The notes below the pieces were generated by a model, which did not search any database, was not told the DNA's origin, and saw only the letters and a program-made list of their open reading frames with translations. Position numbers and translations under genes: made by a program. From positions 5,647-69,646 of the IMG/VR virus record IMGVR_UViG_3300022700_000048: a DNA stretch of 64,000 bases; one strand, written 5' to 3'. Each line of letters opens with the position of its first letter. Within the stretch, counting starts at the first letter, position 1. Source of the DNA: a virus. This document shows positions 8,768 through 34,992 of the stretch, piece by piece.

Positions 8768-9190
8768 ATGAATATATATAAAATTACAAACATTAGTGAT
8801 AAATTAGGGAAAAGAGATAATAATTATAATTCAACATTAAAAATTTCATATATAAATGAAATGGTGAAAAAAAATATTGATTTAAAACCTAATAATACAA
8901 TATATTTTAAAGCAAATTCATTACCACTTTCAGTACAAAAATTTAAGATAAAAAAATTGGTTAGTGTTAATGAAATTAGTGAAAAAGAATTTAATAATAT
9001 TAAACAAAATAAAAAATCAAAACAAAAATCAACAACAACAAGTACAACAAAAAAACCAAAAAAATCAACAAAAAAATCATCGTATAAAAAATCAACATCA
9101 AGTAACAAGAAATCAACAACCAAAAAATCAACAACTACTACAACAACAAGTAAAATAGATGATTATGATGAAAACATTTTGAATAAATAA
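8768..9190 (+). CDS. Hypothetical protein with Lys/Ser/Thr-rich low-complexity tail
   Basis: KKSTTTSTTKKPKKSTKKSS...STTTTTTS. Confidence 0.65.
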   Translation: MNIYKITNISDKLGKRDNNYNSTLKISYINEMVKKNIDLKPNNTIYFKANSLPLSVQKFKIKKLVSVNEISEKEFNNIKQNKKSKQKSTTTSTTKKPKKSTKKSSYKKSTSSNKKSTTKKSTTTTTTSKIDDYDENILNK

Positions 9191-9214
9191 TAAAAATATC
9201 TATTATATTATATG

Positions 9215-9243
9215 GTCAACCAAAATTGGTTGACTTTTTTTTT
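9215..9243 (+). terminator. Rho-independent terminator
   Basis: GTCAACCA-AAAT-TGGTTGAC stem-loop followed by T run. Confidence 0.85.
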
Positions 9244-9272
9244 ATTTGATTTTTTTCTTTTTGAAAAAATAG

Positions 9273-9282
9273 AGTATTTATA
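9273..9282 (+). promoter_or_regulatory. Putative late promoter AGTATTTATA
   Basis: Motif after terminator, upstream of 9317. Confidence 0.7.
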
Positions 9283-9316
9283 ATAAATTATATTATTTTA
9301 TAAAAAACTATAAAGT

Positions 9317-10702
9317 ATGAATGATAAGATTAAAATTTTATTTTATAATGTTGATAGTGCTGGTGTAAATTATTTTCGTACACAAACACCAGCAATGGAA
9401 TTAGAAAGAAATCATTCTGATGAATTTCATGTTGAAATTAATCCACAAATTGATTTTAATGATCCTAATGTTTTAGATTATTTAAAATCGTTTCATATAA
9501 TACATTATCATAGACAATTTTTACCTAATAATAATAAAATGTTAGAACTTTCAAAAGAATTGAAAAAAGCTGGGACTACACTAATTGTTGATGTTGATGA
9601 TTATTGGTATTTACATCCTAAACATCCATTTTATTCTTTAAGTAAAGAAAAACAAATGCACATACCAATAATAGAAAATTTAAAAATTGCTGATTATGTA
9701 ACAACTACAACTAGTATATTTGCTGATGAGATAAAAAATGTAACAAAAAAAGATAATGTTGAAGTATTTTATAATTCAATTGATCCAACATGGATGAAAC
9801 AATTTAAAAATAATTGGAAACCTGATCCAGATGGACGTGTTAGAATAACGTATATGGCTGGCTCATCACACATGGTTGATGTTGAACAATTACGTGGTGT
9901 ATTCAATGTTTTAAGAAATGACCCTAAATTAAAAGATAAATTTAAAGTAATTATTGCAGGTTGGGATACTGAAGGTAGTACAACTGAAGTTACATTTAAT
10001 CAGGAATTCGGTGCAGAACTTCAAGAAAGAGGTTTATGGGATCAAAAAATGGTGAAGGCAATTAATAATACTCGTGGTAATGTTGATCAACTTCCAAATA
10101 TACCACAAGATTTGAGAGAAAAATATAGAGGTAAAGTATTTAATGAAAATAAAAGAGATATAAAATCTGAAGAATCTGTTTATTATTTATATGAAAAAAT
10201 ATTAACTGATAATCATAAATTAATTGAAAATGATGATTATTATGAATGGTTAATGAATTTTGAAAGAGATGTACAGTATAATGGTAATGAGGGTAATTTT
10301 AAACGGGTTTGGACACAAAAAGCTAATACATATGCTAATACTCTTAATGAGACTGATATTGTTATTGCACCACTTGCTGATAATAATTTTAATAAAATGA
10401 AATCAAATTTAAAACAAGTTGAATGTTGGTCAAGAAAATTACCAATTGTATGTTCGGATATCCCACCATATAATGTGGATGGAAAACATATGGAAAATTG
10501 TGTTTTAATACCAAATAAAAAAAATGCACACAAGTATTGGTCAAAATATTTAAAAAATTTAATATTAGACGGCGATTTAAGAAAAAAATTGGGTGAGCAA
10601 TTATATAAAGATTTTAGTGAGAAGTATCATTTAGCAAATGTTACAAAAAAACGTGCTAATTTTTATAAAAAAATTGTAAAAAAATCATTAGAAGTAAAAT
10701 AA
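9317..10702 (+). CDS. Glycosyltransferase (GT-B, GT4-like)
   Basis: GVNYFR..P, IVDVDDYW, ADYVTTTT, DIVIAPLADNNFNKMKSNLKQVE, PIVCSDIPPY. Confidence 0.85.
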   Translation: MNDKIKILFYNVDSAGVNYFRTQTPAMELERNHSDEFHVEINPQIDFNDPNVLDYLKSFHIIHYHRQFLPNNNKMLELSKELKKAGTTLIVDVDDYWYLHPKHPFYSLSKEKQMHIPIIENLKIADYVTTTTSIFADEIKNVTKKDNVEVFYNSIDPTWMKQFKNNWKPDPDGRVRITYMAGSSHMVDVEQLRGVFNVLRNDPKLKDKFKVIIAGWDTEGSTTEVTFNQEFGAELQERGLWDQKMVKAINNTRGNVDQLPNIPQDLREKYRGKVFNENKRDIKSEESVYYLYEKILTDNHKLIENDDYYEWLMNFERDVQYNGNEGNFKRVWTQKANTYANTLNETDIVIAPLADNNFNKMKSNLKQVECWSRKLPIVCSDIPPYNVDGKHMENCVLIPNKKNAHKYWSKYLKNLILDGDLRKKLGEQLYKDFSEKYHLANVTKKRANFYKKIVKKSLEVK

Positions 10703-12978: not shown

Positions 12979-13359
12979 ATGAAAACTATTAATATAAAAT
13001 TTCCATTAACGGATAATACTGAAAAGAATTCATATTATAAAATGAATCGTATTACAAAAGATGCTTTCAGTTCTGATTTATTATTATTATTATTAACAGA
13101 AAAGGGTGAAAGATTTTATTATCCTAATTATGGAACTAATTTATTAAAATATATTTTTGAACCAAATGATAATATATCAGCACAAGATATTGAACAACAA
13201 ATAAAAAAGACAGTATCTTTATATATACCCAATTTAACAATAAAAAAAGTTGAATTTAACAAACCTGAAGAGTCTGATATTCAATTAAATGTTAAAATAA
13301 AATTTATGTATAGTGAAGATACTTTTAGTGAAAACGGTGAATTAGATTTAAATTTTTAA
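12979..13359 (+). CDS. Baseplate wedge protein, T4 gp25/GPW-like
   Basis: LLLTEKGERFYYPNYGTNLLKYIFEP signature. Confidence 0.9.
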   Translation: MKTINIKFPLTDNTEKNSYYKMNRITKDAFSSDLLLLLLTEKGERFYYPNYGTNLLKYIFEPNDNISAQDIEQQIKKTVSLYIPNLTIKKVEFNKPEESDIQLNVKIKFMYSEDTFSENGELDLNF

Positions 13360-13368
13360 TAAATATTT

Positions 13369-15222
13369 ATGGCAACAACAAATCCAGTTAAATACGGTAG
13401 TAGAACTTTTAGTGAAATTAAAGATGATTTAATAGCATTAATAAGACAACAATATCCTGATGTTTTGGGTGATTTTACAGATTCAAGTGTTGGATCAATG
13501 TTAATTGATCTTAATGCTGGTGTAGCAAATAATTTATCGGTTAATACCGATAGAGCATTTCAGGAAACTCAATTAGAATATGCACAACAAAGAAATTCTA
13601 TTTTAAACATTGCAAAAAACATGGGATTCAACATACCAGCAAGAAGACCATCAGTAACAGTTGTTGATTTTACTGTAACTGTTCCTGTAAATGGTGATAG
13701 ACCTGATGCATCCTATTATCCAACTCTTCTACCCGGTGCGCAAGTAATTGGCGGTGGTAAAATATTTGAAACACAAGATATTATAGATTGGAATTCACGA
13801 ATTAGTAATTTAGGTGACCCTAATCGCTCAATATTACCAAATTTAGATTCAAATGGTATTATACAAAGTTATAATGTTACTAAAAGAGAAGTTGTTGTAA
13901 ATGGTTCAACAAGTATATTTAAAAGAGCAATTACAGCAAGAGATGTGACACCATTTTTTTCAATAACATTACCAGACCCAGATGTAATAGAAATTGAAAG
14001 TGTTATATTATTAGAAGGCACTAATTATAGTTCAAATCCAAGTGTATCTGAGTTTTATAATACTGAAAATAGATATTATGAAGTTGATTATTTGGCACAA
14101 CAAAAAATATTTGTTGAAAACCCTAATAGTTCATTTAATACAAATGAAAATGAAGAAAATAATATTAAAGCAGCAAAATGGATTGATGTTACACAAAAAT
14201 TTATTAAAGAATATACACCTAATGGATTTTGTAGATTAACATTTGGTTCTGGTGATCCAATATCTGAACCATTTGAACAAGGTTTTTTAAAAGAAGGTGT
14301 AACAAATAGACAATTTTTAGATAATTTTTTAAAAAATACTTCATTAGGTAAAATGTTAAAAGCAAATAGTACCTTATTTGTTAGATATAGAACTGGTGGG
14401 GGTAGTAATAGTAATTTAGGTGCAAACACACTAACAGAAATTGGTAATATTCAATTAAATGTTGAGGGTTCAAGACAAGATTTTAATCAAGAAGTTCAAC
14501 GTAGTTTAACAGTGAATAATCCAATACCAGCTATAGGTGGAAATGATGGGTTAAGTACTGAACAAATTAGACAATTAATTAAATATAATTATTCATCTCA
14601 AAATAGAGATGTTACAATAACCGATTATTTATTTCAGGTATATAAAATGCCGGGTAGATTTGGTTCACCATTTAAAGCAAATGCATATAAAGAAAACAAT
14701 AAAATTGTTATTCCAATTTTAAGTATTGGTTCAGATGGTAAATTATCAAATCAAAGTAATAATTTATTAAAGGAAAATTTAACAGAATATTTAAGTGGAT
14801 ATAGAATGATTAATGATTTTATTGAAGTAAAAGATGGTAAAATTATTAATCTTGCTTTTGATATTGATTTATATGTTGAAAATATTTCAGATAATACAAT
14901 TGCTAATAATATTATTGATACTGTAAGAGAATTTTTTAATATTAATAATTATGAAATGAATACTGATATTCATATAACTAAATTAGAAAATCAGTTATCA
15001 CAAGTAAATGGTGTTATTAATGTTATTAACATTAAGGCATATAATAAGGTTGGCGGACAATATTCAAATAATGTTATATCTCAAGAAATATTAAATGTTA
15101 GTACTGGTGAAATTAATTTAATTAATAATACTGTATATTCAACAACAGATTCTATGTTTGAAATAAAATATCCTGAAAAAGACATTAATGTCTTTTTAAG
15201 AAAAAGAGTTGGTAGTGTGTAA
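13369..15222 (+). CDS. Baseplate wedge subunit, T4 gp6 / baseplate-J-like
   Basis: Y.SRTFSEIK..L, DFTDSSVGSMLIDL, A..MG, GG.DGLS.EQIR, QNRDVTITDY; follows gp25-like gene. Confidence 0.9.
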   Translation: MATTNPVKYGSRTFSEIKDDLIALIRQQYPDVLGDFTDSSVGSMLIDLNAGVANNLSVNTDRAFQETQLEYAQQRNSILNIAKNMGFNIPARRPSVTVVDFTVTVPVNGDRPDASYYPTLLPGAQVIGGGKIFETQDIIDWNSRISNLGDPNRSILPNLDSNGIIQSYNVTKREVVVNGSTSIFKRAITARDVTPFFSITLPDPDVIEIESVILLEGTNYSSNPSVSEFYNTENRYYEVDYLAQQKIFVENPNSSFNTNENEENNIKAAKWIDVTQKFIKEYTPNGFCRLTFGSGDPISEPFEQGFLKEGVTNRQFLDNFLKNTSLGKMLKANSTLFVRYRTGGGSNSNLGANTLTEIGNIQLNVEGSRQDFNQEVQRSLTVNNPIPAIGGNDGLSTEQIRQLIKYNYSSQNRDVTITDYLFQVYKMPGRFGSPFKANAYKENNKIVIPILSIGSDGKLSNQSNNLLKENLTEYLSGYRMINDFIEVKDGKIINLAFDIDLYVENISDNTIANNIIDTVREFFNINNYEMNTDIHITKLENQLSQVNGVINVINIKAYNKVGGQYSNNVISQEILNVSTGEINLINNTVYSTTDSMFEIKYPEKDINVFLRKRVGSV

Positions 15223-16870: not shown

Positions 16871-19800
16871 GTGGCAAAAGTTAAAGTAATAAACAATAAA
16901 CTTGATCAAAATTTAAATGGTGCTAATTTTGATAATACGGTATCTCAAACATTATTTAAATTTGGTAATTTTAAAGTAACATCTAATTTTGATGGTAGAA
17001 AATTAATTAATTATAAAAATGAATTAAGCACATTTGTAAGAGCAATTAATTTAGAAAATTTACCATTAACAGAAACAGAATCTAAACAAACAGTAAAAAA
17101 TACCAATAATGTTGTTTTAAATTTAGATAGATCAAATTTGAATACTTTCACTAAATTTGGATCAGCATATGAATTTATTAGAGTATCAATTGAAAACATT
17201 ATTGTAAATTATCCCGGAAGTTTATATGTTAATTCACAAATTGAAAGAGGTGGGAAACACACTTTTTATGATTTTACATATGATCCCATAAAAAATATTT
17301 CAAAATTTAAAATACCTTCAAATTCTACTGTTAATAAATTTGGGTTGGTTTTTAATCGTGGAAATGATAGTGAACCAAATAATAATAAATTAAAAAATTT
17401 AAATAAATCATTTTATGATTATGTTATTTGGTCAACAAGATATTCTAGTGATAATAGTCACACTATTATTGGGTTTACTGGTGATACTGAATCACATGAA
17501 TATCTTAGTGTAGAGTGTATTGGTAATCCATTTCCATTTTTAAGTGGTGGTAGTAATACTGCTAAATTTAGTTTTCATATAAAACCTAATACAAGAATTT
17601 TTGATGATTTTAGAATATCATTAAATGATTATGAAAGATATATTGTATCTACTAGATCAAACACTGATGCATTTCAATTTATAATGAAAGAACCTAAATT
17701 ATTGGATGATGGTACTATCAATTATACTGATAGAATTATTAAATGGAGAACAATTGACGGATATAATATTGAAATTGATACACCAAGTTATGGAAATTTT
17801 TTAGAAATTGTATTAAGTGTTGCTGATAAATACGATCAAATAAAGAGTGATTTAATTGCTAGATTTTTAACACCAACATCATTACAAACATATGATTTAA
17901 CTGATAATAAGAAAACTAGTAAATTATTAAGAATTTATGGTGCTGAGTTTGATCAAATAAAACAATTCATTGATTCATTAGTTTATATTAATCGTGTAAC
18001 ATATGATAAAAAAAGAAATATACCTGATCAAATTGTTAGTAATTTAGCAAGAACATTTGGATGGGATTATTTTCAATTAGTGAAAGAAGAAGAATTAATT
18101 GAAAGATTATTTGATTTTCAAGAAGCTGAGAGAGATTTAAATAAAGACTTAATACCTGCAGAGGTTGATATTGAATTATGGAGAAGAATATTAATTAACA
18201 CAAATTATTTTTGGAAATCAAAAGGAACTCGTGATGCAATAAAGTCAATATTTTTAATGATTGGTATTCCTGAACCATTTATTAATATTACAGAACATGT
18301 CTATACTGTCGATGGTAGAATTGATCCACGTGAAGTTCCATTATCATTAAATGATTTACCCTCAATATCGTTACCATATAATAATAATGGTTATCCAATA
18401 GCACCTAAAGAAACATCAGATTTTTATTTTCAAATTTCTGGAAATAGTGATGGTGGTCAAACATATATGAATAACTTTCGTAATGTTGGTTTTGATTTGA
18501 ATTATCAGGTTGATAATAAGAAATCGTGGATTCAAACAGAAGCAACATATAGAAAACACTATTCATCACCAGATTATTATCAATTAGATAGTCAATTAGT
18601 TCTTAATACAAAAGAAGTTGATATTGCTCTTGATATAACAAGAGGTGTTGAATATAGTGTTTATAAGTACATTAAAGAACAGGATTTTCCTGCAAATTCA
18701 ACAGCATATACAATGCCATATTCATATGTTAACTTATCTTTAGGTGTTCCACAAGGTGGTACACAAACATTTACATTACCATCTAATATGATGCCATCTG
18801 AAGGTGATATTGAAGTTCGATATAATGGTATTCTTTTAAATTCAGATAAAGTTTATTCAGGTGGAACAACAACAATTGGCAATAGTGAAAATGATTATAT
18901 TATTAGTGGTGATACACTAATATTAAATGAACCAGCAAATAAATCTAATAATAATAGAGATGTTGTTCAAGTTACATATATTTATAGTGGTCAAACATCT
19001 AATCCAATAACAGGATTAACAGCTAATTATATTGTTTCAAGAGTTGTCCCCCAATACCCATATACAAAAATTACATTACCTGAAATTCCTTCGGGTGATA
19101 TACAATTAACAATTAATGGTATTGCTGCAACAAAAGGTACACCACAATTTCAAGCTGATTATTCAATAAATCCAAATAATCCACAAGAAATAATAATACA
19201 AAATTCAACATTAATATCATATTTTTCACAAAACCCATATACACAAATAGCAATGGTTCATGTAAACCAACCAGATGCATTAGAAGCTAAAAATGAAATA
19301 ATTAGAGTTGATAGTCTTCAAAGTGGTAAAATTTATTATAAAGCATCAGCAAATAAAACTGTTCTACGTTTAAATTATAAAATTATTAATGTAAAAAATG
19401 TAAAAATATTAGTTAATGGAATTGCACTTGAACCTAATAATGATTATAAAATCAATCCAAATAATGATTATGAATTATATCTTCCTGCGGGTATTAATTT
19501 AGGTGATATAATTAGCGCATATTATCTTATTGGGGGTGATATAGTACAAACACCAGTAATTGATGATGAATTTGGTCTTGGTGATATTTCAGAAATGTCA
19601 TTTTTAGAATTTTTAGATTTAATGAAAAAAAGAACAATTAATGCAACAAATAGAAAAATAATAACAGATTTTAAGGGTGGGTGGTATCCAACATTATTAA
19701 ATATTTATACAACATATTTACATAGAGCAAATTTAAATAATGAAGATCAATTAAAATCAAATGGGTATACATTTGAAAATTTATATCCCTTTTTAAACAA

Positions 19801-20590
19801 ATATAATGCTTTCTTTCAAAAATTTGTTGATCAATTATTGTCATCAACAATAATACAGGATAAAGGTGGGTTATTAATTAGAAATACAATATTCACTAAA
19901 CAAAAATATGCATATAAAAGAGGTGTTAGCTTTGATTTTGGTGGCGGTATTTCAAAATCTTTAAATTATTTTGGTAGTGATGATGCAACATATTTAAAAA
20001 GACCACTACAACAAGTAGCTGAATGGACTGATGATGTAATTTGTACACCTGATTTATGCGATGATTTTGAGGTTAAAAATGTCCAAGTCATTTATCCAAC
20101 TGTTACTACTACAACAACAGCAGCACCATATGATTCAATATTAAATATTGTTGAACAATCATCTTCATATACTCCAATAACAAATGGTTATGAATCACAA
20201 GTAGTATATGGATTAGAATTTTCACCATCAATATTACCAGATTATACTGTTAATCTTAATTTAGATTTTGATTATATTTTAAATAATTCCAGTGGTGCAA
20301 CAGATCAATTGACAATTCTTGAAGTTCAAGTTAAAATAAATAATAATATTGTTTATAACATATCAAAATATAACAATAATATAGAAAATCAAATATCAAC
20401 TGGTACAACATTAATATCTATAGGTGCTGGAGATAATGTTACAATAATATTATATAATAGTGCACAAGAAAGTTCAAGTAATGAAATAATATCAGAAACT
20501 ATTATGACACCAAATGTGGAAGATGTGTTACCAAATGGAGAAATAGGTGTTATCATACCATCAATAATAAGAAATAAAGTAAATACATAA
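16871..20590 (+). CDS. Large baseplate wedge/tail protein (gp7 / P2-I-like core with appended beta domains)
   Basis: LARTFGW...ELWRRILINTNYFWKSKGTRDAIKSIF core; repeated V.YNG/INGI..DY beta modules; poly-Thr linker near the C-terminus. Confidence 0.75.
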   Translation: MAKVKVINNKLDQNLNGANFDNTVSQTLFKFGNFKVTSNFDGRKLINYKNELSTFVRAINLENLPLTETESKQTVKNTNNVVLNLDRSNLNTFTKFGSAYEFIRVSIENIIVNYPGSLYVNSQIERGGKHTFYDFTYDPIKNISKFKIPSNSTVNKFGLVFNRGNDSEPNNNKLKNLNKSFYDYVIWSTRYSSDNSHTIIGFTGDTESHEYLSVECIGNPFPFLSGGSNTAKFSFHIKPNTRIFDDFRISLNDYERYIVSTRSNTDAFQFIMKEPKLLDDGTINYTDRIIKWRTIDGYNIEIDTPSYGNFLEIVLSVADKYDQIKSDLIARFLTPTSLQTYDLTDNKKTSKLLRIYGAEFDQIKQFIDSLVYINRVTYDKKRNIPDQIVSNLARTFGWDYFQLVKEEELIERLFDFQEAERDLNKDLIPAEVDIELWRRILINTNYFWKSKGTRDAIKSIFLMIGIPEPFINITEHVYTVDGRIDPREVPLSLNDLPSISLPYNNNGYPIAPKETSDFYFQISGNSDGGQTYMNNFRNVGFDLNYQVDNKKSWIQTEATYRKHYSSPDYYQLDSQLVLNTKEVDIALDITRGVEYSVYKYIKEQDFPANSTAYTMPYSYVNLSLGVPQGGTQTFTLPSNMMPSEGDIEVRYNGILLNSDKVYSGGTTTIGNSENDYIISGDTLILNEPANKSNNNRDVVQVTYIYSGQTSNPITGLTANYIVSRVVPQYPYTKITLPEIPSGDIQLTINGIAATKGTPQFQADYSINPNNPQEIIIQNSTLISYFSQNPYTQIAMVHVNQPDALEAKNEIIRVDSLQSGKIYYKASANKTVLRLNYKIINVKNVKILVNGIALEPNNDYKINPNNDYELYLPAGINLGDIISAYYLIGGDIVQTPVIDDEFGLGDISEMSFLEFLDLMKKRTINATNRKIITDFKGGWYPTLLNIYTTYLHRANLNNEDQLKSNGYTFENLYPFLNKYNAFFQKFVDQLLSSTIIQDKGGLLIRNTIFTKQKYAYKRGVSFDFGGGISKSLNYFGSDDATYLKRPLQQVAEWTDDVICTPDLCDDFEVKNVQVIYPTVTTTTTAAPYDSILNIVEQSSSYTPITNGYESQVVYGLEFSPSILPDYTVNLNLDFDYILNNSSGATDQLTILEVQVKINNNIVYNISKYNNNIENQISTGTTLISIGAGDNVTIILYNSAQESSSNEIISETIMTPNVEDVLPNGEIGVIIPSIIRNKVNT

Positions 20591-20592
20591 TA

Positions 20593-21507
20593 ATGAAACT
20601 ATTAATAGCATTACCGGAGCATAATTATTTTTTATGGCAAATGTTGGTTCAAATTAACAATTTGAAAAAATTTGGATATGATAAAGATACTATTTATGTT
20701 ATTGGTAGACAAGATATTAAGCGTAATGAAAATTTAGATAATATAATAAAACACACAAAAACAAATTGTAGTTTTTATACATATAATGATGATAGAAATG
20801 ATTATACATATTCATCTTCTTTAAGACCACATATTCTTCATAAATTATTTTTAGATTACCCCGAATTTAAAAATGAATCGTTTTTTTATATAGACCCTGA
20901 TGTTATTTTTACAAAAAAAATAAGATTTAATGATATTGAAAAAAATGATATATGGTATTTAAGTGATACACGTTCATATATTGGTTCATCATATATAAAA
21001 AGTAAAAGTAATGAATTATTTAATAAAATGTGTGATGTTGTTGGTATTGATCCTCAAATTGTTGAAGATAATGATAAAAATGCTGGTGGTGCACAATATT
21101 TTATGAAAAATTTAACACCATCTTTTTGGAAAAAAGTTGAAAACGATAGTATAAATTTATATAAATTAATGATTAATACACAAAATAAATACACTCCCGA
21201 AGCACCGATTCAGGCTTGGACTGCTGATATGTGGGCGGTATTATGGAATGCTTGGTTAATGAAATATGAAACAAAAATTGTAAAAAGACTAAATTTTTCA
21301 TGGGCAACCGATCCCATTTCAAAATGGGATAAGTGTAGCATTTATCATAATGCTGGTGCTGTTGGTGATAATAATTTTTTTAAAAAAACTGATTATCAAA
21401 AATCACCTTTTAATGAAAAATTAAAATGTTCATCAAAATATTGCTCATTTAATTATGTTAAAGAAATTAAAGAAACTAAAAAAAATTATAAAAATATTTT
21501 ATTCTAA
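20593..21507 (+). CDS. GT-A fold glycosyltransferase resembling peptidyl-Ser/Hyp O-glycosyltransferases
   Basis: Y....RP, FFYIDPDVIF (DxD), GGAQY, QAWTADMWAVLWN, IYHNAG; sits between tail genes. Confidence 0.7.
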   Translation: MKLLIALPEHNYFLWQMLVQINNLKKFGYDKDTIYVIGRQDIKRNENLDNIIKHTKTNCSFYTYNDDRNDYTYSSSLRPHILHKLFLDYPEFKNESFFYIDPDVIFTKKIRFNDIEKNDIWYLSDTRSYIGSSYIKSKSNELFNKMCDVVGIDPQIVEDNDKNAGGAQYFMKNLTPSFWKKVENDSINLYKLMINTQNKYTPEAPIQAWTADMWAVLWNAWLMKYETKIVKRLNFSWATDPISKWDKCSIYHNAGAVGDNNFFKKTDYQKSPFNEKLKCSSKYCSFNYVKEIKETKKNYKNILF

Positions 21508-23387
21508 TGTTTAATAATACAAGAAAATATCGTCTAAATGTTGAGGAAATTAAATCACATGGTATTAGTGCTAATACAAAAAATTATGAATATAATTTAT
21601 TAAATAGTTTTAATGTTAATAATACCACATATCCACAATTATCTACAGAAGAATTAGCAAATTTAAACATACCAAATTATTTAAGTCGTGTTTGCGATTA
21701 TTTAACGTATATAAATATTGAAAGGGAAGGATTAAGAGAAAAATTAATTAATAATGCATTAACACATACATCTGATTGTGAAATAAAATGTAAACTAAAT
21801 TCAGATTTTTTAGTTTATCGGTTTTTAACTGGTGTTAGAGTTGTTAACATTGGAGAATTTAATGGTACTGTTGAATACAAAGCATATCCAATTGAAGATG
21901 ATCCAAGTGGTTATACATGGCAAACAAGTGGAACATTTTTAAATTTAAATTTAAATAAAATTTATGTATTTGAAGTTAGAGATATTGTAGATAATGAAGA
22001 ATATTGTAAAGTTCAAAGAACAGTATCATTACCAACTTTAGTCCAAAGTACCACATTTACACCAGAAGAAAAATTAGTGTATCTTAATGAAGTTGCGTGT
22101 GGATCAAATAATCTTTATTATTATAATAATGGTACAATTAATATTGATCCGTCATTAACTAATGATGAGATTGTTTGTATTAATTATAAAGTATTTGCAG
22201 ATGCATATGGTGATGCTGAATCATGTGTACAATTATTTTGTAAACCTAATAATTGTAATACATTTTTAAATTATTCATGTCATACATCAGATGATGGTTT
22301 ACAATCAGGTAATTTTACATTACGAGACGGTGATCAGATGTGTTATAATTTAACTAATATAGTACCAACAGCAGGTTCTTGTGCATGTACATGTTTTGAA
22401 ATATATAATGTTGATGGTGGCGGTACAACAGCACCATCAATTGATGAAAGTCGTTCATGTGTTACTAGATGTGCTTCAATACCTAGAGAAGAAATTATTT
22501 TTAATTTAGATGAATCAATAATATACTCAAATGAGTGTTGTGAAAAGAAAATTGGTAATTTTAATTTTTCACCGTCAATTCCAGAAAATGAATGTTTAAG
22601 TCTTGAATTAAATGATTTAGCAAGAATTAGTCCATATCAGAATACTGCATCAGCATCAGTTATTGTTAAATGTAAATCACAAAGTGGGGTAAATTACGAT
22701 ACATTGTTTACAAATACATCTGGATTGCCCTCACCTACATCAAGAAGTATAGAAATTAAACATGGTGATTCATTATGTTATGAATTAATGGTTGAAGCAG
22801 TTAATGGTGTTACTGGAACATCATGTATAAATGTTTTCAATATACCAACACAATCAAATGGTATAAACACAAATATTGGACCATCTGGTAGTACATGTGT
22901 TGAAAAATATGTTGAACCATTAGCAGCAACTCTTTCTGTTTGTCAACAAAATGAAACATATGATGAAATAATAAACACTAAATTTGGTAATGGGTATATA
23001 AATATATCACCATCAATAACATTAAATCAATGCGTTAATATTAATTTTAGTGGAGAATTTTTAGTTTTTAGTGCAGATCAAAATATTAATAATTCTGGAA
23101 CAATTAATATCTTTTGTAAAAAAGCAATTGATAATAATTACTCTATTAAATGTACAATGGAAACAAATGGTTCTACTACTACATGTACTGGTAATATGTT
23201 TATTTGTTCTGGTGATAGTTTGTGTTATGCAATTTCAGCAAGAGCAGCTACATGTAGTACATCAGTATCAACTAATTTAAAATTAGATAGTGCTTCTGGA
23301 TTTAATGGAATTGATCCGTCAGTATCATCAACAAAAAATAATCATTGTATATCAGTATCATATAATGAAAATAATAACATTTTATAA
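21507..23387 (+). CDS. Cys-rich tail-associated protein with three internal repeats
   Basis: Three units with I.PS....C / CK / GD.LCY motifs. Confidence 0.7.
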   Translation: MFNNTRKYRLNVEEIKSHGISANTKNYEYNLLNSFNVNNTTYPQLSTEELANLNIPNYLSRVCDYLTYINIEREGLREKLINNALTHTSDCEIKCKLNSDFLVYRFLTGVRVVNIGEFNGTVEYKAYPIEDDPSGYTWQTSGTFLNLNLNKIYVFEVRDIVDNEEYCKVQRTVSLPTLVQSTTFTPEEKLVYLNEVACGSNNLYYYNNGTINIDPSLTNDEIVCINYKVFADAYGDAESCVQLFCKPNNCNTFLNYSCHTSDDGLQSGNFTLRDGDQMCYNLTNIVPTAGSCACTCFEIYNVDGGGTTAPSIDESRSCVTRCASIPREEIIFNLDESIIYSNECCEKKIGNFNFSPSIPENECLSLELNDLARISPYQNTASASVIVKCKSQSGVNYDTLFTNTSGLPSPTSRSIEIKHGDSLCYELMVEAVNGVTGTSCINVFNIPTQSNGINTNIGPSGSTCVEKYVEPLAATLSVCQQNETYDEIINTKFGNGYINISPSITLNQCVNINFSGEFLVFSADQNINNSGTINIFCKKAIDNNYSIKCTMETNGSTTTCTGNMFICSGDSLCYAISARAATCSTSVSTNLKLDSASGFNGIDPSVSSTKNNHCISVSYNENNNIL

Positions 23388-25823: not shown

Positions 25824-27086
25824 ATGTCAGATTTTAGATTTAAAATAAGCGGTGATTCTGGTCCATTTTTGGCAGAATTATATGATGCAATAACATGTAG
25901 TAAAATTACATCAAAAATAATTGAATATTCTGGTTTATCAACACCCGATAAAGAAAATTACACGTGTGTAATTTTTAATGGGTTATATGAAGAAACTAAT
26001 TATTATGCAAAAGTAATTGATAATATTGGTAATACTGCTCTTTCAATAACAGGACAAACCCCAACAAATCCAATTGTTATTCCAACTGAAATTAATATTA
26101 ATTTACTTGGAACATATTATGAACCACCACAAACACTTGAAACAATATGTACATTACGATCACCAAAATATATAGAGATCACACCAGCACCAATAGGTAA
26201 TCAATGTGTTACTGTTAATTTAAGTGCTGTTACTTGTTCTTCAAGTAGTTATAGTGACGCATATATTGAACTATATAAGAAATGTACTGAATCTGGTTCA
26301 TACACATCAATTTGTACAATAACAAATAATACAACGAATGTTGATCCAATACAAATTGGTGAGGGGGATGGTGTGTGTTATGACTTATATACTAAATTGG
26401 AAGATAATATTACTTCAGCCGATAAATATGCATGTGCTGAATTACAATTATTTAATACAACAGCATCAGGATATGGTTCATGTTATGAAATAAATACGAC
26501 AAATGATTGTTTAGACATATCACAATTTGAAGCAGGTACAACAACTACTACAACTACAACATTATCACCAACAGTTGTATATATTGATGATATTAATACT
26601 AATACAGTAACATTTGGTCAATTAAAATGTGGAAATATAAATACATATCCAGCTATTAATTCATCACAATCATTTAGAGTATGCTTTGAAATTATTAATA
26701 ATTATGTTATTAATGAAACATTACCTGATGATATAAATCAATGTGGACGTATATTAGAATCAAATAGTTTAATTGATGAATTGGGAACAAATGAAAAAGA
26801 TGTTGGTACTTGTACGTGTAGGATATCAACATATATTGATATTGATTCAAATAATATTATTAATAGTAATGTTAATGTTAATTCATTAGTTGGTGGTAGT
26901 AATAATAATTATGGTTGTAATTATTGTGAATATCAATGTATAAGAATTTGTCAAATAACTAATATGAATAATGGTAATTTTATTTATGGAACTAGTGGTT
27001 ATCCTTCAAGTATTTGTACATATTGGGACGGTAATTTACAGGGTTCATTAAATGGTGGTGGTGGATTATTAGAAAATAATATATAA
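25824..27086 (+). CDS. Cys-rich tail-associated protein with poly-Thr linker
   Basis: Shares I.PA....C...GDG.CY module with 21507 protein; GTTTTTTTTLSP. Confidence 0.7.
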   Translation: MSDFRFKISGDSGPFLAELYDAITCSKITSKIIEYSGLSTPDKENYTCVIFNGLYEETNYYAKVIDNIGNTALSITGQTPTNPIVIPTEININLLGTYYEPPQTLETICTLRSPKYIEITPAPIGNQCVTVNLSAVTCSSSSYSDAYIELYKKCTESGSYTSICTITNNTTNVDPIQIGEGDGVCYDLYTKLEDNITSADKYACAELQLFNTTASGYGSCYEINTTNDCLDISQFEAGTTTTTTTTLSPTVVYIDDINTNTVTFGQLKCGNINTYPAINSSQSFRVCFEIINNYVINETLPDDINQCGRILESNSLIDELGTNEKDVGTCTCRISTYIDIDSNNIINSNVNVNSLVGGSNNNYGCNYCEYQCIRICQITNMNNGNFIYGTSGYPSSICTYWDGNLQGSLNGGGGLLENNI

Positions 27087-27098
27087 AAATAAATATAT

Positions 27099-27818
27099 AT
27101 GTCAAATTTAATTAAATTTAATATTATTAATGGTGTTCCACCGTTTGAAGCAGAATTAATTGGTAGTTCATTACCAAAACAAATATTTAATAGTATAGGA
27201 CAACATTATTTTTATAATGTTTTAAATGGTTACTATACATTAAAAATTGTTGATGCAAATGGATGTATATATGAAAAGGAAATTATTGTTGATCCATCAA
27301 TAACAACAACTACAACAACATTAATACCTGAAGAATCAATTGTTGTTGGTCATGCACAAGACCCTTTACTTATTTTTAATCCTATTGCAACAAATAAAAA
27401 TGATGATTTCGTTGGTTATCCAGATTCTGATGTAGTAACATTATATTTATGGTTTAAAACATATAATGGAAAACCATTAACAAATAATGTAGCAATAAGT
27501 TATAATATTGGAACAACTGGTGGGACAACAGATTCAACATTTAAATTTAATTCGGTTAGTGATGAAATACATACTGAAGTTCAAGAAGATGTTACTGGAC
27601 CTAATGATTCTATTATTGGTAATATAATATTAAAAAAGGGATTTATTGAATCATATTTTGAATATATATATTATAGGGGGTCAACAAATAAAAGGTATCA
27701 AATTGAATTAAAATCAGGATTAGATAATTTTTATCCTAATAGTGAAACTAGTGATGATATTGGTACTGATTACGGTATTTCAATTATTGATACTAATGAA
27801 ATTATATTTAATTATTAA
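27099..27818 (+). CDS. Tail-associated protein with SprB-like N-terminal repeat and poly-Thr linker
   Basis: NGVPPF...NGYYTLKIVDANGC then PSITTTTTTLIP. Confidence 0.65.
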   Translation: MSNLIKFNIINGVPPFEAELIGSSLPKQIFNSIGQHYFYNVLNGYYTLKIVDANGCIYEKEIIVDPSITTTTTTLIPEESIVVGHAQDPLLIFNPIATNKNDDFVGYPDSDVVTLYLWFKTYNGKPLTNNVAISYNIGTTGGTTDSTFKFNSVSDEIHTEVQEDVTGPNDSIIGNIILKKGFIESYFEYIYYRGSTNKRYQIELKSGLDNFYPNSETSDDIGTDYGISIIDTNEIIFNY

Positions 27819-29450: not shown

Positions 29451-30062
29451 ATGGAAAATTATATATTATCTTTAGATATTTCAACAACTAATGTAGGATT
29501 AGCTTTATGGGATGAAAAGGGTAAATTAATTGAATTAAAACATTTAAGTTTAAAAACCGATAAAAAAATACCAATAGATCATAGAGATTTATATAAAGCT
29601 GAGTTATTTAGAAATTATTGTGAAGAATATAAAAATTATGTAAAAAGGGAGTTAAACGGAAAAATATCTAATTTATTTGTTGAAGCACCTTTACAACACA
29701 CACCAAAAAATGTTAATACAACTGCTTTATTATTGGGTTTTAATGGTATGGCAAGATATGTATTAATGCAAGTTTTTGAATATAAACCAGAAAAAATTAC
29801 AGTACATGAAGCTAGAAAATTATTTTGTCCTGAATTAGTACATCAGAAGAAAAGAAAGGGTGAATTAGTTGAGGTTTTATCATTTCCAACTGAATACAAA
29901 AAAAGAAAAAAACATTATATTTGGGAAAAGGTATATAAATTAGAACCACAAATTGAATGGTTTTATAATAGAAATAATAAACTTAAAGATATTAATTATG
30001 ATATGAGTGATAGTTATGCTGTTGGTATTGGTGGGCTAAAAAAAATGGGAATTATTAAATAA
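29451..30062 (+). CDS. RuvC-like Holliday junction resolvase
   Basis: ILSLDISTTNVG, FVEAP, DMSDSYAVG acidic catalytic set. Confidence 0.85.
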   Translation: MENYILSLDISTTNVGLALWDEKGKLIELKHLSLKTDKKIPIDHRDLYKAELFRNYCEEYKNYVKRELNGKISNLFVEAPLQHTPKNVNTTALLLGFNGMARYVLMQVFEYKPEKITVHEARKLFCPELVHQKKRKGELVEVLSFPTEYKKRKKHYIWEKVYKLEPQIEWFYNRNNKLKDINYDMSDSYAVGIGGLKKMGIIK

Positions 30063-30064
30063 AA

Positions 30065-30373
30065 ATGAAATATGTATATTTAATACAATCATTAGAAAAC
30101 GGTTATTATAAAATAGGTGTTTCAAAAGACCCACAAAAAAGATTACTACAATTACAAACTGGAAATTCATCTAAATTAAAATTAATAGAATATTATCCTT
30201 CAGAATACGCAAATAAAATAGAAAAAAGCATTCATAATTTTTTATCACATTTAAAAAAGGAAGGTGAATGGTTTAATATATCATTATTAGAAGCACTTTC
30301 TTTTACTGAAAAATGTAAACAAATTGAAGAAAATATTAATATTTTAAATAAATGTAATAATGTATTTATTTAA
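30065..30373 (+). CDS. GIY-YIG (T5orf172/MUG113-type) nuclease domain protein
   Basis: YVYLIQ....YYKIGVSKDPQKRLLQLQTGN...E...H......GEWF. Confidence 0.85.
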   Translation: MKYVYLIQSLENGYYKIGVSKDPQKRLLQLQTGNSSKLKLIEYYPSEYANKIEKSIHNFLSHLKKEGEWFNISLLEALSFTEKCKQIEENINILNKCNNVFI

Positions 30374-30378
30374 AATAC

Positions 30379-30409
30379 TTGTATTTTAAGTTTTTTTGTG
30401 TTATGTTTG
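30379..30409 (+). promoter_or_regulatory. Bacteroidota sigma-A-type promoter
   Basis: TTG-N20-TATGTTTG upstream of 30452. Confidence 0.7.
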
Positions 30410-30451
30410 ACAATAAATTAATAAAAATTATATTTATTAAAATCTATATAA

Positions 30452-31996
30452 ATGACTAGACAACGAATTGAAAGAGCTGTTGATGTTATAAAATATGCAA
30501 TAAAATATAACATCTCATTAAATGAAGCATCAGTTAAATGTGGATATGCTAATACATATGTAAAAAATGTTAAAGCAATACTTAAAGAAAAATATGAAAA
30601 TGATATTATTGATGATGAGTTATTTTCTTTTTTTATGGATAAATATAAGGAATATGAAAATATTCGAGATAATGAATTAAGTCCTCAAATAGATGAAGAT
30701 GTTGATAAATCATTTATTGGTGAAAAATTAACATTTAATTCATCTGGTGATAAAGCAGATATCAATTGGAATGGTAATAGAACTCATTTTGATAAAACGT
30801 TTGGATGTGATAACGATATTGAAAATAAAGAACATTATGGGTATCCAAAAGGTCATATAAAAACGTTAGAGCAATTATTAGATAAATGCAATATTGATAA
30901 AGATATATGGGATGTTGATCATTATCTTGTAAATAAATGGGATGTAACATCTTGGCAAGTAGGACATCCTCAAACATGGGAAAATTTTCAAGTTAAAGCA
31001 AAATTAAAATTAAAAGAAGCACAACATAAAGCTAAATTAGCTGGTGAAATATTTCAAGAAATGACCAAAAATTATAAACCACCAGTTATTGATTGGGATA
31101 TTAATAATAGAAGTTATAAGGATGATGATGGTGAAAATAATTTATTTGAAGTAGCATTATTTGATATTCATTTTGGTAAATTAGCGTGGAATGGGGAGAC
31201 TGGTGAAAATTTTGACACAAAAATAGCTAAAAAAAGATTTATTTATGCTCTAAAAAAATTAATTCAAAGAGCACAGGGTTATAAATATAATCGAATATTA
31301 TTTCCAATTGGTAATGATTTTTTTAATTCGGATACTAGAGAAAATACAACTTCACATGGAACACCACAAGATGAAGACCTTAGATGGCAAAAAACATTTG
31401 AAGCAGGTTGTAGTTTAATAGTTGATGGTGTTAATATATTAAAACAACTTGGTGTACCAATTGATATTGTTGTTATACCCGGTAATCATGATTTTGAACG
31501 TTCATTTTTCTTAGGGTCATATATTAAAGCATGGTTTAGAAATGATGAACAAATAAATATTAATAATGCTGCTAAACCGAGAAAATATTATCGTTGGGGT
31601 AAAGTTCTTCTTGGTTTTACTCATGGAAGGCATGAAAAAGAAAATTCATTACCAATGTTAATGGCTAAAGATAAAGATGGTAAAAAACATTGGAGTGAAA
31701 CTGATTTTCATGAATGGCATTTAGGTCATTTTCATAGAAAGAAAACTAAGCAATATACTGTTTTAGATAAAACAAATTATACTGATGAAGAAGATGGTGT
31801 TATTGTAAGATATTTAGCATCTCTTACAGGTACTGAAGAATGGCATTTTAAAAAGGGTTTTGTTGGACAAATTAAAGCAGGTGAGGGTTTTATTTGGAAT
31901 GATAAAACAGGTATGATTGGTAATGTAAATGCGAATTATATATTTGAGGGTTCATTTGAAGAAAATAATGATATTAATACATTATTAAATTTATAA
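30452..31996 (+). CDS. Calcineurin-like metallophosphoesterase with N-terminal extension
   Basis: DIHFG, GNDFFNSD, PGNHD, THG, LGHFH motifs. Confidence 0.9.
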   Translation: MTRQRIERAVDVIKYAIKYNISLNEASVKCGYANTYVKNVKAILKEKYENDIIDDELFSFFMDKYKEYENIRDNELSPQIDEDVDKSFIGEKLTFNSSGDKADINWNGNRTHFDKTFGCDNDIENKEHYGYPKGHIKTLEQLLDKCNIDKDIWDVDHYLVNKWDVTSWQVGHPQTWENFQVKAKLKLKEAQHKAKLAGEIFQEMTKNYKPPVIDWDINNRSYKDDDGENNLFEVALFDIHFGKLAWNGETGENFDTKIAKKRFIYALKKLIQRAQGYKYNRILFPIGNDFFNSDTRENTTSHGTPQDEDLRWQKTFEAGCSLIVDGVNILKQLGVPIDIVVIPGNHDFERSFFLGSYIKAWFRNDEQININNAAKPRKYYRWGKVLLGFTHGRHEKENSLPMLMAKDKDGKKHWSETDFHEWHLGHFHRKKTKQYTVLDKTNYTDEEDGVIVRYLASLTGTEEWHFKKGFVGQIKAGEGFIWNDKTGMIGNVNANYIFEGSFEENNDINTLLNL

Positions 31997-32002
31997 AAAA
32001 AT

Positions 32003-32062
32003 CATAATATTTTATATTTTTTTATAAATTTTAGTATTTATGAGAAAATATAAAATATTATG
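32003..32062 (+). promoter_or_regulatory. Long hairpin covering ATG 32060, with late motif AGTATTTAT (32033-32041) at its apex
   Basis: 32003-32020 CATAATATTTTATATTTT is the exact reverse complement of 32045-32062; the stem extends inward with G-U pairs. Confidence 0.7.
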
Positions 32063-32605
32063 GCAAAGAAAAAAAACACTAATGTAACTAAATTAGCTAA
32101 AAGTAATACTAAAAAAAGTACAACTAATGCATCTACTAAGAAAAAACAAGAATCTAATAGTATTGATGTTAAAGCTAAAGAAAGAGTTAATAAATTATTA
32201 GATGATGTTAATTTAACCCCCAAAAAGGGTGAGGGTGATAATAATTTATTAGAATTAAATGAAAAAAATGTACAAAGTCTTGAATGGCTTCAAGAACAAA
32301 TTGATAAATTAAGTACTGAAAATGAAAAATTAAAAAAAGAAGCTGAAGAAGCAAAAGAAAACTATAAAAAATTATATTCACAATATCAAGCTGTTACTAA
32401 TGGTAAAAATATTACTAATGATAAAAATAATTTAGTTCCCGATTCTATGATAAAAAACGGTGTAACTGATTTATTTAATGAATTTCAAAAAAATTATCTT
32501 GGTCAAAATCAACAAAAAATTAGATATACTGAAATTAAATTACCACATTTAATGAATAAAATGATTAAAAAGTTTTCATTTTTAAAAGAAATTAAACGTT
32601 TTTAA
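32060..32605 (+). CDS. Hypothetical protein, basic N-terminus and coiled coil
   Basis: 181-aa ORF. Confidence 0.65.
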   Translation: MAKKKNTNVTKLAKSNTKKSTTNASTKKKQESNSIDVKAKERVNKLLDDVNLTPKKGEGDNNLLELNEKNVQSLEWLQEQIDKLSTENEKLKKEAEEAKENYKKLYSQYQAVTNGKNITNDKNNLVPDSMIKNGVTDLFNEFQKNYLGQNQQKIRYTEIKLPHLMNKMIKKFSFLKEIKRF

Positions 32606-32631
32606 TTCGTTGGCTTTTTCTTATTTCAATT

Positions 32632-32666
32632 AATGCTTCAAAAGAATTGTTTTGAAGCATTTTTTT
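32632..32666 (+). terminator. Terminator hairpin overlapping the next promoter
   Basis: AATGCTTCAAAA-GAATTG-TTTTGAAGCATT then T run. Confidence 0.75.
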
Positions 32667-32677
32667 ATATATATTTG
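32647..32677 (+). promoter_or_regulatory. Bacteroidota sigma-A-type promoter
   Basis: TTG-N20-TATATTTG just before primase ATG 32683. Confidence 0.6.
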
Positions 32678-32682
32678 TCACT

Positions 32683-33720
32683 ATGATTAGAGGTAAAGAA
32701 TTTCATGAAATTATTTATAATATCTTTGATGATGTTAAAGGATTAAATGAATCCGAGCAATTACAAGTTAATTGTCCAAGATGTCAAGAAAGAGATGGTT
32801 TACAATATCCAGATGGTAAATATAATCTTGAAATTAATACCCAAAAAAGAGTTTTTAAATGTTGGAAATGTGATGAACCTAAATTTAGCGGTTCGTTAGG
32901 TAGATTAATTAAATTATTTGGTTCATATGCTGATTATCAATTATATAAATCTTATGCATCAATATTTAATGATTATAATTATAATGAAGATGAAAAAGAT
33001 TTTGTTCAAGTTCAATTACCTAATGAAATGATTTATTTTTCACAAATGGATATTTCTAATCCTGAACATTTTGAAGCATATAGTTATCTTATTAATGGTA
33101 GAAAATTAACAAGAGATATTATTTTAAAATATAGGCTTGGTTTTTGTACCGAAGGTGAATATGCTGGTAGAATAATAATACCATCATTTGATGAATTTGG
33201 GGAAGTGAACTATTTTGTTGGAAGAACATATAAAAAAAATATAAAAATAAAATATAAAAATCCTAAATCAGACAAAAAAAGATTCATTTTTAATGAAGGA
33301 ATGATTAATTGGGATTCAACAATATATTTAGTTGAAGGAGTGTTTGAAATGTTATCCTTCCCTGTTAATACAATACCTTTATTAGGTAAAGATTTATTGG
33401 ATACGTTATTTTTTAAATTAAAAGAAATACACCCTAATGTTGTAATTATATTAGACCCTGATGCATATAAATCAGCCATTGATTTATATTATAAATTATA
33501 TTCTATTTATATTGGAAATGAAGATAAGATTAAAATTGTAAAATTACCAACGAATGATGATTTAGATAAATTAAGAGAAAAATATGGACATAAGACATTA
33601 ATAAAAACATTATATACTGCAAGAAAATTAATAACTGATGATTTTTTTGTACATAAGAAAATAAATGATGGAAAAAAATATGGAAGATACAATTCTTATT
33701 CAAAATATTTTAAAGGGTGA
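32683..33720 (+). CDS. DNA primase (Zn finger plus TOPRIM)
   Basis: CPRC...CWKC Zn finger; GRIIIPS, YFVGR, KYKNP, LVEGVFE, LDPDA. Confidence 0.9.
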   Translation: MIRGKEFHEIIYNIFDDVKGLNESEQLQVNCPRCQERDGLQYPDGKYNLEINTQKRVFKCWKCDEPKFSGSLGRLIKLFGSYADYQLYKSYASIFNDYNYNEDEKDFVQVQLPNEMIYFSQMDISNPEHFEAYSYLINGRKLTRDIILKYRLGFCTEGEYAGRIIIPSFDEFGEVNYFVGRTYKKNIKIKYKNPKSDKKRFIFNEGMINWDSTIYLVEGVFEMLSFPVNTIPLLGKDLLDTLFFKLKEIHPNVVIILDPDAYKSAIDLYYKLYSIYIGNEDKIKIVKLPTNDDLDKLREKYGHKTLIKTLYTARKLITDDFFVHKKINDGKKYGRYNSYSKYFKG

Positions 33721-34291: not shown

Positions 34292-34296
34292 GAAAA

Positions 34297-34319
34297 AAAG
34301 GTCGCTTAATGCGACCTTT
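34297..34319. terminator. Bidirectional terminator between convergent sigma and Hsp20 genes
   Basis: AAAGGTCGC-TTAAT-GCGACCTTT. Confidence 0.8.
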
Positions 34320-34349
34320 ACCAATTTTCAATCCACTTTTTAATCATAT

Positions 34350-34775: not shown

Positions 34776-34940
34776 TGTTTTTTATTTTTTTTTTATGTTA
34801 TTATTAATTTAATTAAGATTAACTAATTTTATGCCAAAAACTTTTAACTGTATAATTGTCAGTTATTTATGTAATTTTGTCATTTTTTTATAAAAATTTT
34901 TTGATTTTTTGTCAGTGTTTTTCCTTTTAATAAAAGTTTC

Positions 34941-34971
34941 TTGATATTTTAAAGTAAATGGTTTATTTTTG
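34941..34971 (+). promoter_or_regulatory. Bacteroidota sigma-A-type promoter
   Basis: TTG-N20-TATTTTTG upstream of ATG 34993. Confidence 0.7.
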
Positions 34972-34992
34972 TTTCATATAAAAAAAATTAAT

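Follow-up and report, generated by a model that had tools for sequence, protein, structure and literature searches.

What does a glycosyltransferase (GT) gene do among the baseplate genes of a large phage, and on what does its product act? The question is raised by a 64,000-nucleotide stretch of viral DNA (henceforth the window; positions 5,647 to 69,646 of IMG/VR record IMGVR_UViG_3300022700_000048), which carries, amid structural genes, an open reading frame (ORF) for a GT-A-type enzyme (henceforth GT; coordinates in Table 1). The original prediction, made from the letters of the window, was that this enzyme glycosylates tail proteins, with TTTTT-type peptides among the candidate acceptors. 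We find that relatives of the gene lie beside genes for proteins with runs of threonine and that gene and runs are gained or lost together. We think it likely that GT, as a soluble cytoplasmic GT-A enzyme, starts the O-glycosylation of virion proteins of its own phage at their threonine runs.

Threonine runs beside the glycosyltransferase gene

Relatives of GT are present in at least 595 IMG/VR loci. We surveyed 86 loci, the IMG/VR part of which comprised the best 80 of these relatives, and found an ORF with a run of at least five threonines in 74 of the 86. Dropping loci with identical GT proteins left 74 non-redundant loci, and their position profile peaks directly upstream of the GT gene: a run is present in 53 of 73 ORFs at position -1, in 13 of 67 at position -2 and in 6 of 72 at position +1, compared with 28 of 756 ORFs lying three or more positions away (position -1 versus distant ORFs, odds ratio 69, Fisher p 4e-46). 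With their tracts masked and the window included, the -1 ORFs fall into 37 unrelated BLAST clusters, 24 of which have tract-bearing members. PHROGs profiles name few of the 67 IMG/VR upstream ORFs, and the resulting rows are virion proteins in all but two cases. Seven upstream ORFs match major tail protein, with one more row for a major tail protein with an Ig-like domain; virion structural protein accounts for three rows and head maturation protease for five, each row with one member. The two non-virion rows are a second phrog_4417 copy (phrog_4417 being the family of GT itself, see below) and a GtrB-like O-antigen-conversion family.

Some uncultured phages encode mucin-like proteins with 23-32% Thr, up to 29 runs of at least five threonines and TTTTTT-(E/A/V)-P repeats. 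The ORFs L046:1962-5282, L051:8607-9974 and L036:242-982 are of this kind and lie directly upstream of a GT homologue, and L033:2859-7658 lies two ORFs upstream of one.

Within the window, runs of at least five threonines occur in 4 of 84 ORFs, against 0.011 expected from composition. Three of these ORFs belong to the baseplate module and encode the 1239-aa protein immediately upstream of GT, a 420-aa protein with a T8 run and a 239-aa protein with a T6 run, whose orthologue in L012 also has a T5 tract. The fourth directly precedes another glycosyltransferase gene. This second candidate acceptor-enzyme pair (8768-10702) consists of a 140-aa Lys/Ser/Thr-rich protein (STTTSTT ... STTTTTTS) followed by a 461-aa protein (9317-10702) that matches phrog_7162 'glycosyltransferase' (1.6e-29) and, weakly and below threshold, Pfam Glycos_transf_1.

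Cultured phages show the same arrangement. A GT homologue follows the major tail protein gene in the annotated Bacillota siphophages phiFL1A, phiCTP1 and 1706 and the capsid gene in vipetofem and iLp84, and the capsid and/or tail-tube proteins of these five siphophages end in 5-21 threonines. We compared, as an Enterococcus-phage-like set, 27 IMG/VR loci (L088-L114) with orthologues of the phiFL1A tail-tube protein (65-100% identity). In all 12 loci with the GT gene, which is directly downstream, the tail-tube protein and the ~325-aa capsid protein both carry poly-Thr tails, and none of the 15 loci lacking it has a Thr5 run in any ORF of at least 60 aa, in any frame (Fisher p 5.8e-8). On a tail-tube tree, computed from the core with the tail cut off and leaving out L113, whose gene is truncated at the end of the locus, four changes are counted for GT and four, in step with them, for the tail; the three well-supported independent pairs are all concordant. 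Over about 11 kb, L106 (with GT) and L109 (without) differ only by the tail plus GT gene (952 versus 105 nucleotides) and by the end of the capsid gene, which is about 23 nucleotides longer in L106. In another pair, L097/L098, the GT-less phage L098 has about 640 nucleotides of other sequence at the GT slot. We conclude that in these loci the enzyme gene and the poly-Thr tails, on capsid and tail-tube protein alike, act as one gain-or-loss cassette.

A second comparison covered the window's own clade. Loci were fetched via the gp6-like protein and kept if they held a complete 1239-aa orthologue and at least 1.1 kb after it; orthologues cut by a contig end were left out, as was L171 (326 bases after the orthologue). 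All five GT-positive orthologues, two of which are those of L009 and L011, contigs also present in the first survey, have a T5-T7 run at residues 1072-1095. The GT-negative loci number 22 (16 non-redundant), and a T5 run is found in none of their orthologues (0 of 16 non-redundant ones; Fisher p 4.9e-5). L127 has the tract, and its contig ends before the GT position. When the 1239-aa orthologues are aligned, the tract is seen in seven of eight, at the border between a body that is 47-60% identical and a C-terminal part of ~160 aa that is 20-34% identical. At the same junction, L028:6216-9989 shows the tract expanded into several runs (T6, S/T-mixed, T7, T8).

Tract position and co-variation are strong comparative evidence that the enzyme may indeed glycosylate tail or other virion proteins at TTTTT-type acceptors. 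This support for protein O-glycosylation comes from gene context and not from the argument by which the original prediction had reached it, a motif likeness to peptidyl glycosyltransferases of families GT95 and GT96.

Fold, catalytic-type residues and family

Judging by its conservation, the GT gene is real and under selection, since its family counts 798 representatives of 50%-identity clusters (E<=1e-3), its product matches phrog_4417 over the full length (E 1.5e-68, residues 1-296 on positions 1-292 of a profile of 293) and eleven residues are invariant in a 44-sequence alignment (W15, Q16, Y73, D103, Y129, G166, F235, H252, G255, K265 and P272). The four sequence motifs from which a GT-A-type enzyme had been recognised are present as described (YIDPDVIF, residues 99-106; GGAQY, 165-169; WTADMWA, 209-215; YHNAG, 251-255), and so is the tight packing of the gene: its ATG lies 2 nucleotides past the stop of the 1239-aa ORF, and its stop shares one base with the ATG of the following Cys-rich ORF (TAATG). 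Translational coupling, which had been claimed along with this spacing and overlap, is suggested by the spacing.

The fold has now been assigned by modelling and structural searches. An AlphaFold2 model built on the 44-sequence alignment (pLDDT 96.4, pTM 0.93) has a fold of the GT-A type, with a single Rossmann-like alpha/beta/alpha domain that matches solved GT-A enzymes along most of the chain, and shows no membrane segment. In the model, the DxD motif at D101/D103 comes after strand 96-99, where it would bind metal and nucleotide sugar; D101 is at least 90% conserved among the 44 sequences, and both aspartates are invariant in the 90 fused homologues described below. In GT8 enzymes, a C-terminal His in an HxxGxxKPW-like motif completes the metal site. 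GT has H252-x-x-G255 and K265, all invariant, and H252 and K265 may be the equivalents of the GT8 His and Lys residues. The motifs GGAQ and QxW(T/C)A(D/E)MW are likewise conserved and peculiar to the GT family.

Foldseek against the PDB gave 289 matches at E<=1e-3, and the rows listed are all GT-A enzymes except GlcNAc-1-phosphotransferase. The best rows include retaining GT-A enzymes (WbbM, LgtC, UGGT and alpha-1,3-GalT) at E about 1e-6 and TM about 0.5. VIA-align returned 88 chains at Z>=8, including glycogenin (Z 14.7, root-mean-square deviation 3.4 A, 218 aligned), human glycogenin-1 (14.6, 3.5 A, 222), LgtC (14.5, 3.6 A, 238), Skp1 alpha-GalT (14.5, 3.6 A, 215), UGGT (13.6, 4.0 A, 241), GlyE (12.5, 3.8 A, 217) and A64R, the capsid-glycosylating enzyme of PBCV-1 (10.6, 3.6 A, 190). 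Against a library of viral structures, the model has two near matches, both to uncharacterised phage proteins, followed by a group made up mostly of viral glycosyltransferases, of GT8 type and others. The original prediction had looked to such fold searches to tell enzymes acting on protein from those acting on DNA or lipopolysaccharide (LPS). The nearest folds are mixed, with glycoprotein-acting enzymes (glycogenin, Skp1 GalT, UGGT, GlyE) beside lipooligosaccharide (LOS) and O-antigen enzymes (LgtC, WbbM), and the fold by itself decides neither for nor against a protein acceptor.

By its model, GT is a GT-A glycosyltransferase with a GT8-like fold that stands outside GT8 by sequence. The latter point follows because the Pfam GT8 model is silent while its control works: PF01501 (Glyco_transf_8) found nothing at E<=1 in the source record and four related jumbo-phage records, and matched in 6 of 14 control genomes. 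A phmmer search of GT against the PDB returned only a chance match (E 0.49). We also tried and rejected a kinship with TAL effectors, to which a profile of the family aligned in the PDB with a summed E of 8.6e-6; single repeats reach at most 3 bits, which marks a repeat artefact. The segment concerned, a helix-loop with the pattern LxxMCxxVGIxxxxVxxNxxNxGGAQ (residues 139-167, window 21007-21093), resembles the 34-residue TAL-effector repeat, a resemblance that we read, from the sequence, as chance or convergence.

The kinship with hydroxyproline arabinosyltransferase (HPAT, GT95) that the motifs had suggested is faint at best. The Pfam HPAT family PF23452 does not match GT at E<=10, only 1 of 44 GT relatives gives an HPAT match, at E 0.0043 and below cut-off, and in the ESM Atlas a neighbouring cluster of GT (score 0.97) carries HPAT on 10% of its members. 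In searches run without a positive control, the HPAT model found no match in 11 records holding a family member, and the DUF7164 model none in the source record and ten others.

At the 90% level, our collection holds 2835 family proteins among 7024 candidates, and among the 120 listed, wherever the source gives a name, it is 'hypothetical'. In GenBank, tblastn (E<=1e-5) matched 77 of 50,697 phage records, all below 60% identity; the hosts of these phages are mostly Lactobacillus, Enterococcus, Staphylococcus and Lactococcus, and also Clostridium. Many homologues are longer than GT: 90 of the 150 best family representatives have at least 430 aa, and the GT domain is the first, N-terminal domain in most fused forms. 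A Pfam search (E<=1e-3) for second domains in these 90 identified Glyco_transf_7C in 11 members, Glycos_transf_2 in five, Glyco_tranf_2_2 in three, and GT6, GT25, Glyco_tranf_2_3, methyltransferase, radical SAM and SPASM in one each. The recognised fusion partners all build or trim glycans, with no unrelated chemistry among them.

Proposed mechanism and competing explanations

We propose that GT binds a nucleotide sugar, supplied by the host, via its DxD motif and a divalent metal, and that it would transfer the sugar to the threonine hydroxyls of exposed poly-Thr linkers and tails in the cytoplasm, before or during assembly and probably with retention. An alpha-linked sugar is expected because the nearest folds are all retaining enzymes. 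In the window, the prime acceptor would be the Thr5 linker of the 1239-aa baseplate or fibre protein encoded 2 nucleotides upstream, and the Thr8 linker of the 420-aa protein and the Thr6 linker of the 239-aa protein are probable further acceptors. Single-domain forms, that of the window included, would add the first sugar and fused forms would extend it. We infer the initiating role from the single-gene difference between L106 and L109, and a host enzyme could still perform the first step. The glycan would make a poly-Thr linker stiff, hydrophilic and resistant to proteases, a mucin-like spacer or shield, so that stiffening, protease protection, shielding and adhesion are candidate benefits, as suggested by mucin-type domains and by the mycobacteriophage precedent discussed below. 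A complex prediction for GT and residues 1045-1239 of the 1239-aa protein (score 0.01, mark 0.32) says nothing either way.

For the family as a whole, we lean towards the view that phrog_4417 enzymes initiate a mucin-type O-glycosylation that is widespread among tailed phages and has not been described so far. The enzyme gene would stand right after the acceptor gene, the acceptors would be capsid, tail-tube, fibre and mucin-like proteins, and the system, gained or lost as a cassette with the tracts, would extend over Bacillota siphophages, jumbo phages and many uncultured phages.

Several observations weigh against this account. Twelve of the 86 surveyed loci lack any ORF with at least five consecutive threonines within the 20 kb examined, and the -1 ORF lacks a T5 run in 20 of 73. 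The survey drew its IMG/VR loci from the top of the ranking, its ORFs were called crudely, by a simple script of our own, and the threshold of five was picked after the poly-Thr tails of cultured phages had been noticed. The Enterococcus set contains only 3-4 independent contrasts, for which a sign test gives p 0.25. In the window's clade, two GT-negative loci carry a T5 run in another ORF, and the window's own tract is a short one of 5 Thr, with 160 residues between it and the C-terminus, unlike the terminal tails of the siphophages. As to the enzyme, a Pfam scan of GT found no family at E<=10, and hence no glycosyltransferase family; the closest folds include the LOS and O-antigen enzymes LgtC and WbbM; and the top 50 VIA-align matches contain no known initiating Ser/Thr O-transferase of GT27 type.

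The presence of LgtC and WbbM among the close structural matches would fit an enzyme that modifies a host envelope glycan (LPS or LOS, teichoic acid, or capsule) and so blocks superinfection or changes a receptor. In pelagimyophages, T4-like phages of the sea, GT8-type enzymes encoded within a hypervariable tail-fibre region have been read as O-chain modifiers (PMC7029224), and the GT gene of the window, too, stands at the edge of a fast-evolving region. We nevertheless regard an envelope glycan as an unlikely target. It leaves unexplained both the co-variation of poly-Thr tracts with GT (12/12 versus 0/15 and 5/5 versus 0/16) and the about 20-fold enrichment of threonine runs in the -1 ORF; moreover, the model of GT is devoid of a membrane segment, and the gene sits among late structural genes, in temperate-type siphophage layouts too. 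The data favour the virion over the host O-chain as the target of the GT family.

If the virion is the target, GT might extend a sugar already put on virion threonines by the host or by another phage enzyme. GlyE, Skp1 alpha-GalT, UGGT, XXYLT1 and LARGE1, all among the nearest folds, act on protein-bound sugars, and the window encodes a second glycosyltransferase at 9317-10702. On the other hand, GT accounts for the one gene-sized difference that separates L106 from L109 across ~11 kb of structural genes, and in many homologues the GT domain is N-terminal and followed by a second GT domain, an order consistent with an initiator preceding an extender. Glycogenin, the top fold match, transfers directly to a protein hydroxyl, which also counts against a purely extending role, and we give such a role rather little chance. 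We consider it very improbable that the association is a by-product of recombination, in which (ACN)n repeats are insertion hot spots, or GT travels with C-terminal modules, and the enzyme has an unrelated substrate such as DNA. In the window's clade, the presence of GT does go along with a different C-terminal module in the upstream protein, and phage DNA glycosyltransferases are known (PMC12619734). Yet the capsid tail of the Enterococcus set is ~2 kb from GT, with conserved genes between, and still co-varies with it perfectly; the tracts use mixed codons; they occur in upstream proteins of 24 unrelated clusters; and the recognised fused domains all build or modify glycans. O-glycosylation of the phage's own threonine runs, begun by GT, is the reading that we carry forward.

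The baseplate module and known glycosylation systems

The window has 24% G+C, and its source is a 69.6-kb IMG/VR virus record rated 23% complete by CheckV. The jumbo-phage setting is sound, because relatives with the same gene order are records of 325-362 kb, two of them with terminal repeats. The features of the module are collected in Table 1.

Table 1. Features of the GT locus; positions refer to the window.
Feature	Position	Strand	Remarks
gp25-like baseplate wedge subunit	12979..13359	+	phrog_261, 4.6e-17; phrog_43, 3.7e-11; marks module start
gp6-like baseplate wedge protein	13369..15222	+	phrog_219, 2.9e-19; profile matches PDB 9f4a gp6, E 7.1e-6
1239-aa baseplate- or fibre-module protein	16871..20590	+	proposed main acceptor; synteny with GT kept in relatives
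Thr5 tract of 1239-aa protein	20105..20119	+	residues 1079-1083; ACT ACT ACA ACA ACA; proposed O-glycosylation site
GT gene	20593..21507	+	304 aa, ATG start, TAA stop; predicted GT-A glycosyltransferase, phrog_4417 member
DxD motif codons D101-P102-D103	20893..20901	+	D103 invariant, D101 >=90% conserved (44 sequences); putative metal/nucleotide-sugar binding
626-aa protein	21507..23387	+	32 Cys, repeated modules, fast-evolving
420-aa protein	25824..27086	+	21 Cys; Thr8 linker, residues 239-246, bases 26538-26561; possible further acceptor
239-aa protein	27099..27818	+	Thr6 linker, residues 69-74, bases 27303-27320; possible further acceptor

The gene had been placed in a tail operon, next to a large wedge gene. 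The operon context holds in part, in that the gp25-like and gp6-like genes lie upstream in the same direction and open a co-directional string that continues through the genes for the 1239-aa protein, GT and the 626-, 796-, 420-, 239-, 255- and 198-aa proteins and stops before a RuvC-like gene at 29451. The identity of the preceding gene as a wedge gene is unproven, as the immediate neighbours of GT match nothing: for the 1239-aa and 626-aa proteins, searches of Pfam, PHROGs, PDB profiles and GenBank phages (blastn, tblastn) gave no match, and the ESM Atlas gave nothing usable for the 1239-aa protein. Synteny, which the original prediction had named as a check, is well preserved, and the order gp6-like, 63, 151, 300, 1239, GT is kept in a dozen or more related contigs.

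The 626-aa protein is 27-39% identical among relatives in which flanking proteins are 53-75% identical. Because it diverges faster than its flanks, we place GT on the edge of a fast-evolving section of the baseplate module that probably serves host recognition, and the 626-aa protein is probably a distal fibre or receptor-binding component. Its modules of ~130 aa each have recurring GDxxCY and CK motifs and vary in number, with more in L012. Beyond the module (29451-38334) lie DNA-metabolism genes for a RuvC-like resolvase, an SbcD-like exonuclease (30452-31996), a primase (32683-33720) and an SbcC-like 1121-aa protein. Ahead of the baseplate genes, a 488-aa protein (5236-6702) combines a C-terminal GNAT domain (Pfam Acetyltransf_1, 2.2e-6) with an N-terminal part that is weakly membrane-protein-like.

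How does the proposed system compare with known ones? Among retaining enzymes, GT is closest to GT8 and GT24, whose members give the best structural matches over almost the whole protein, and it has a DxD and a conserved C-terminal His that may correspond to that of GT8; several of these enzymes act on proteins or protein-bound glycans. It differs from them in its low sequence identity (6-11%) and in the family's own QxW(T/C)A(D/E)MW and GGAQ motifs. With HPAT and GT96 enzymes GT would share a protein hydroxyl as acceptor, the proposed one here being Thr and theirs Hyp (hydroxyproline) or Ser. Mucin-type O-glycosylation is carried out by GT27 polypeptide GalNAc-transferases, Golgi enzymes that act on Pro/Thr/Ser-rich domains. 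The likeness would be that of a retaining GT-A enzyme acting on dense threonine runs, and some upstream phage proteins are mucin-like; unlike GT27 enzymes, GT has no lectin domain and would be cytoplasmic, and GT27 is missing from the 50 best structural matches.

The nearest functional precedent is found in mycobacteriophages, whose own enzymes put sugars on capsid and tail-tube subunits at the C-termini (Freeman et al. 2023, as cited in PMC12619734 and PMC12363180). Che8 gp110, Corndog gp38 and Myrna are examples of such virion glycosylation (PMC12619734, PMC12363180 and PMC13313380), and self-glycosylation of actinobacteriophages alters antibody recognition (PMC12363180). PMC12894461 records no glycoprotein bands in ten other phages and was set aside as not bearing on the question. 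As in mycobacteriophages, whose glycosyltransferases probably modify capsid and tail-tube proteins of the same phage at the C-terminus, siphophage members of the GT family adjoin capsid and tail-tube genes, and the products of these end in poly-Thr. In both systems a phage glycosyltransferase is genetically tied to virion proteins; the glycans of the present family are predicted from genes alone. What sets the family apart is the position of the GT gene directly after the acceptor gene within a structural operon, the homopolymeric Thr acceptor, and the Bacillota and jumbo-phage hosts. There is no sign of homology to the mycobacteriophage enzymes, as the genus tally of the 77 tblastn-matched GenBank records contains no Mycobacterium among the matches listed. 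A paper on JBD30 was set aside as a precedent, since it concerns pilus glycosylation, as were reviews of adsorption by phages of Gram-positive bacteria, which concern host teichoic acids. Our literature search, which lay outside subscription journals and supplements, found no paper on the phrog_4417 family, on a poly-Thr link or on an acceptor-then-enzyme layout.

Only some actinobacteriophages have so far been shown to glycosylate their own particles. The pattern of a poly-Thr ORF followed by a GT gene offers a simple, testable annotation rule for thousands of 'hypothetical' genes, and the compact pair of enzyme and tag is a candidate for cytoplasmic protein glycosylation. If our reading is true, virion glycosylation would be common, to judge from the at least 595 IMG/VR loci, 798 clusters and 77 GenBank phages with a family member, and the surface chemistry, stability, immune visibility and mucus binding of several phages relevant to dairy and therapy would need re-reading.

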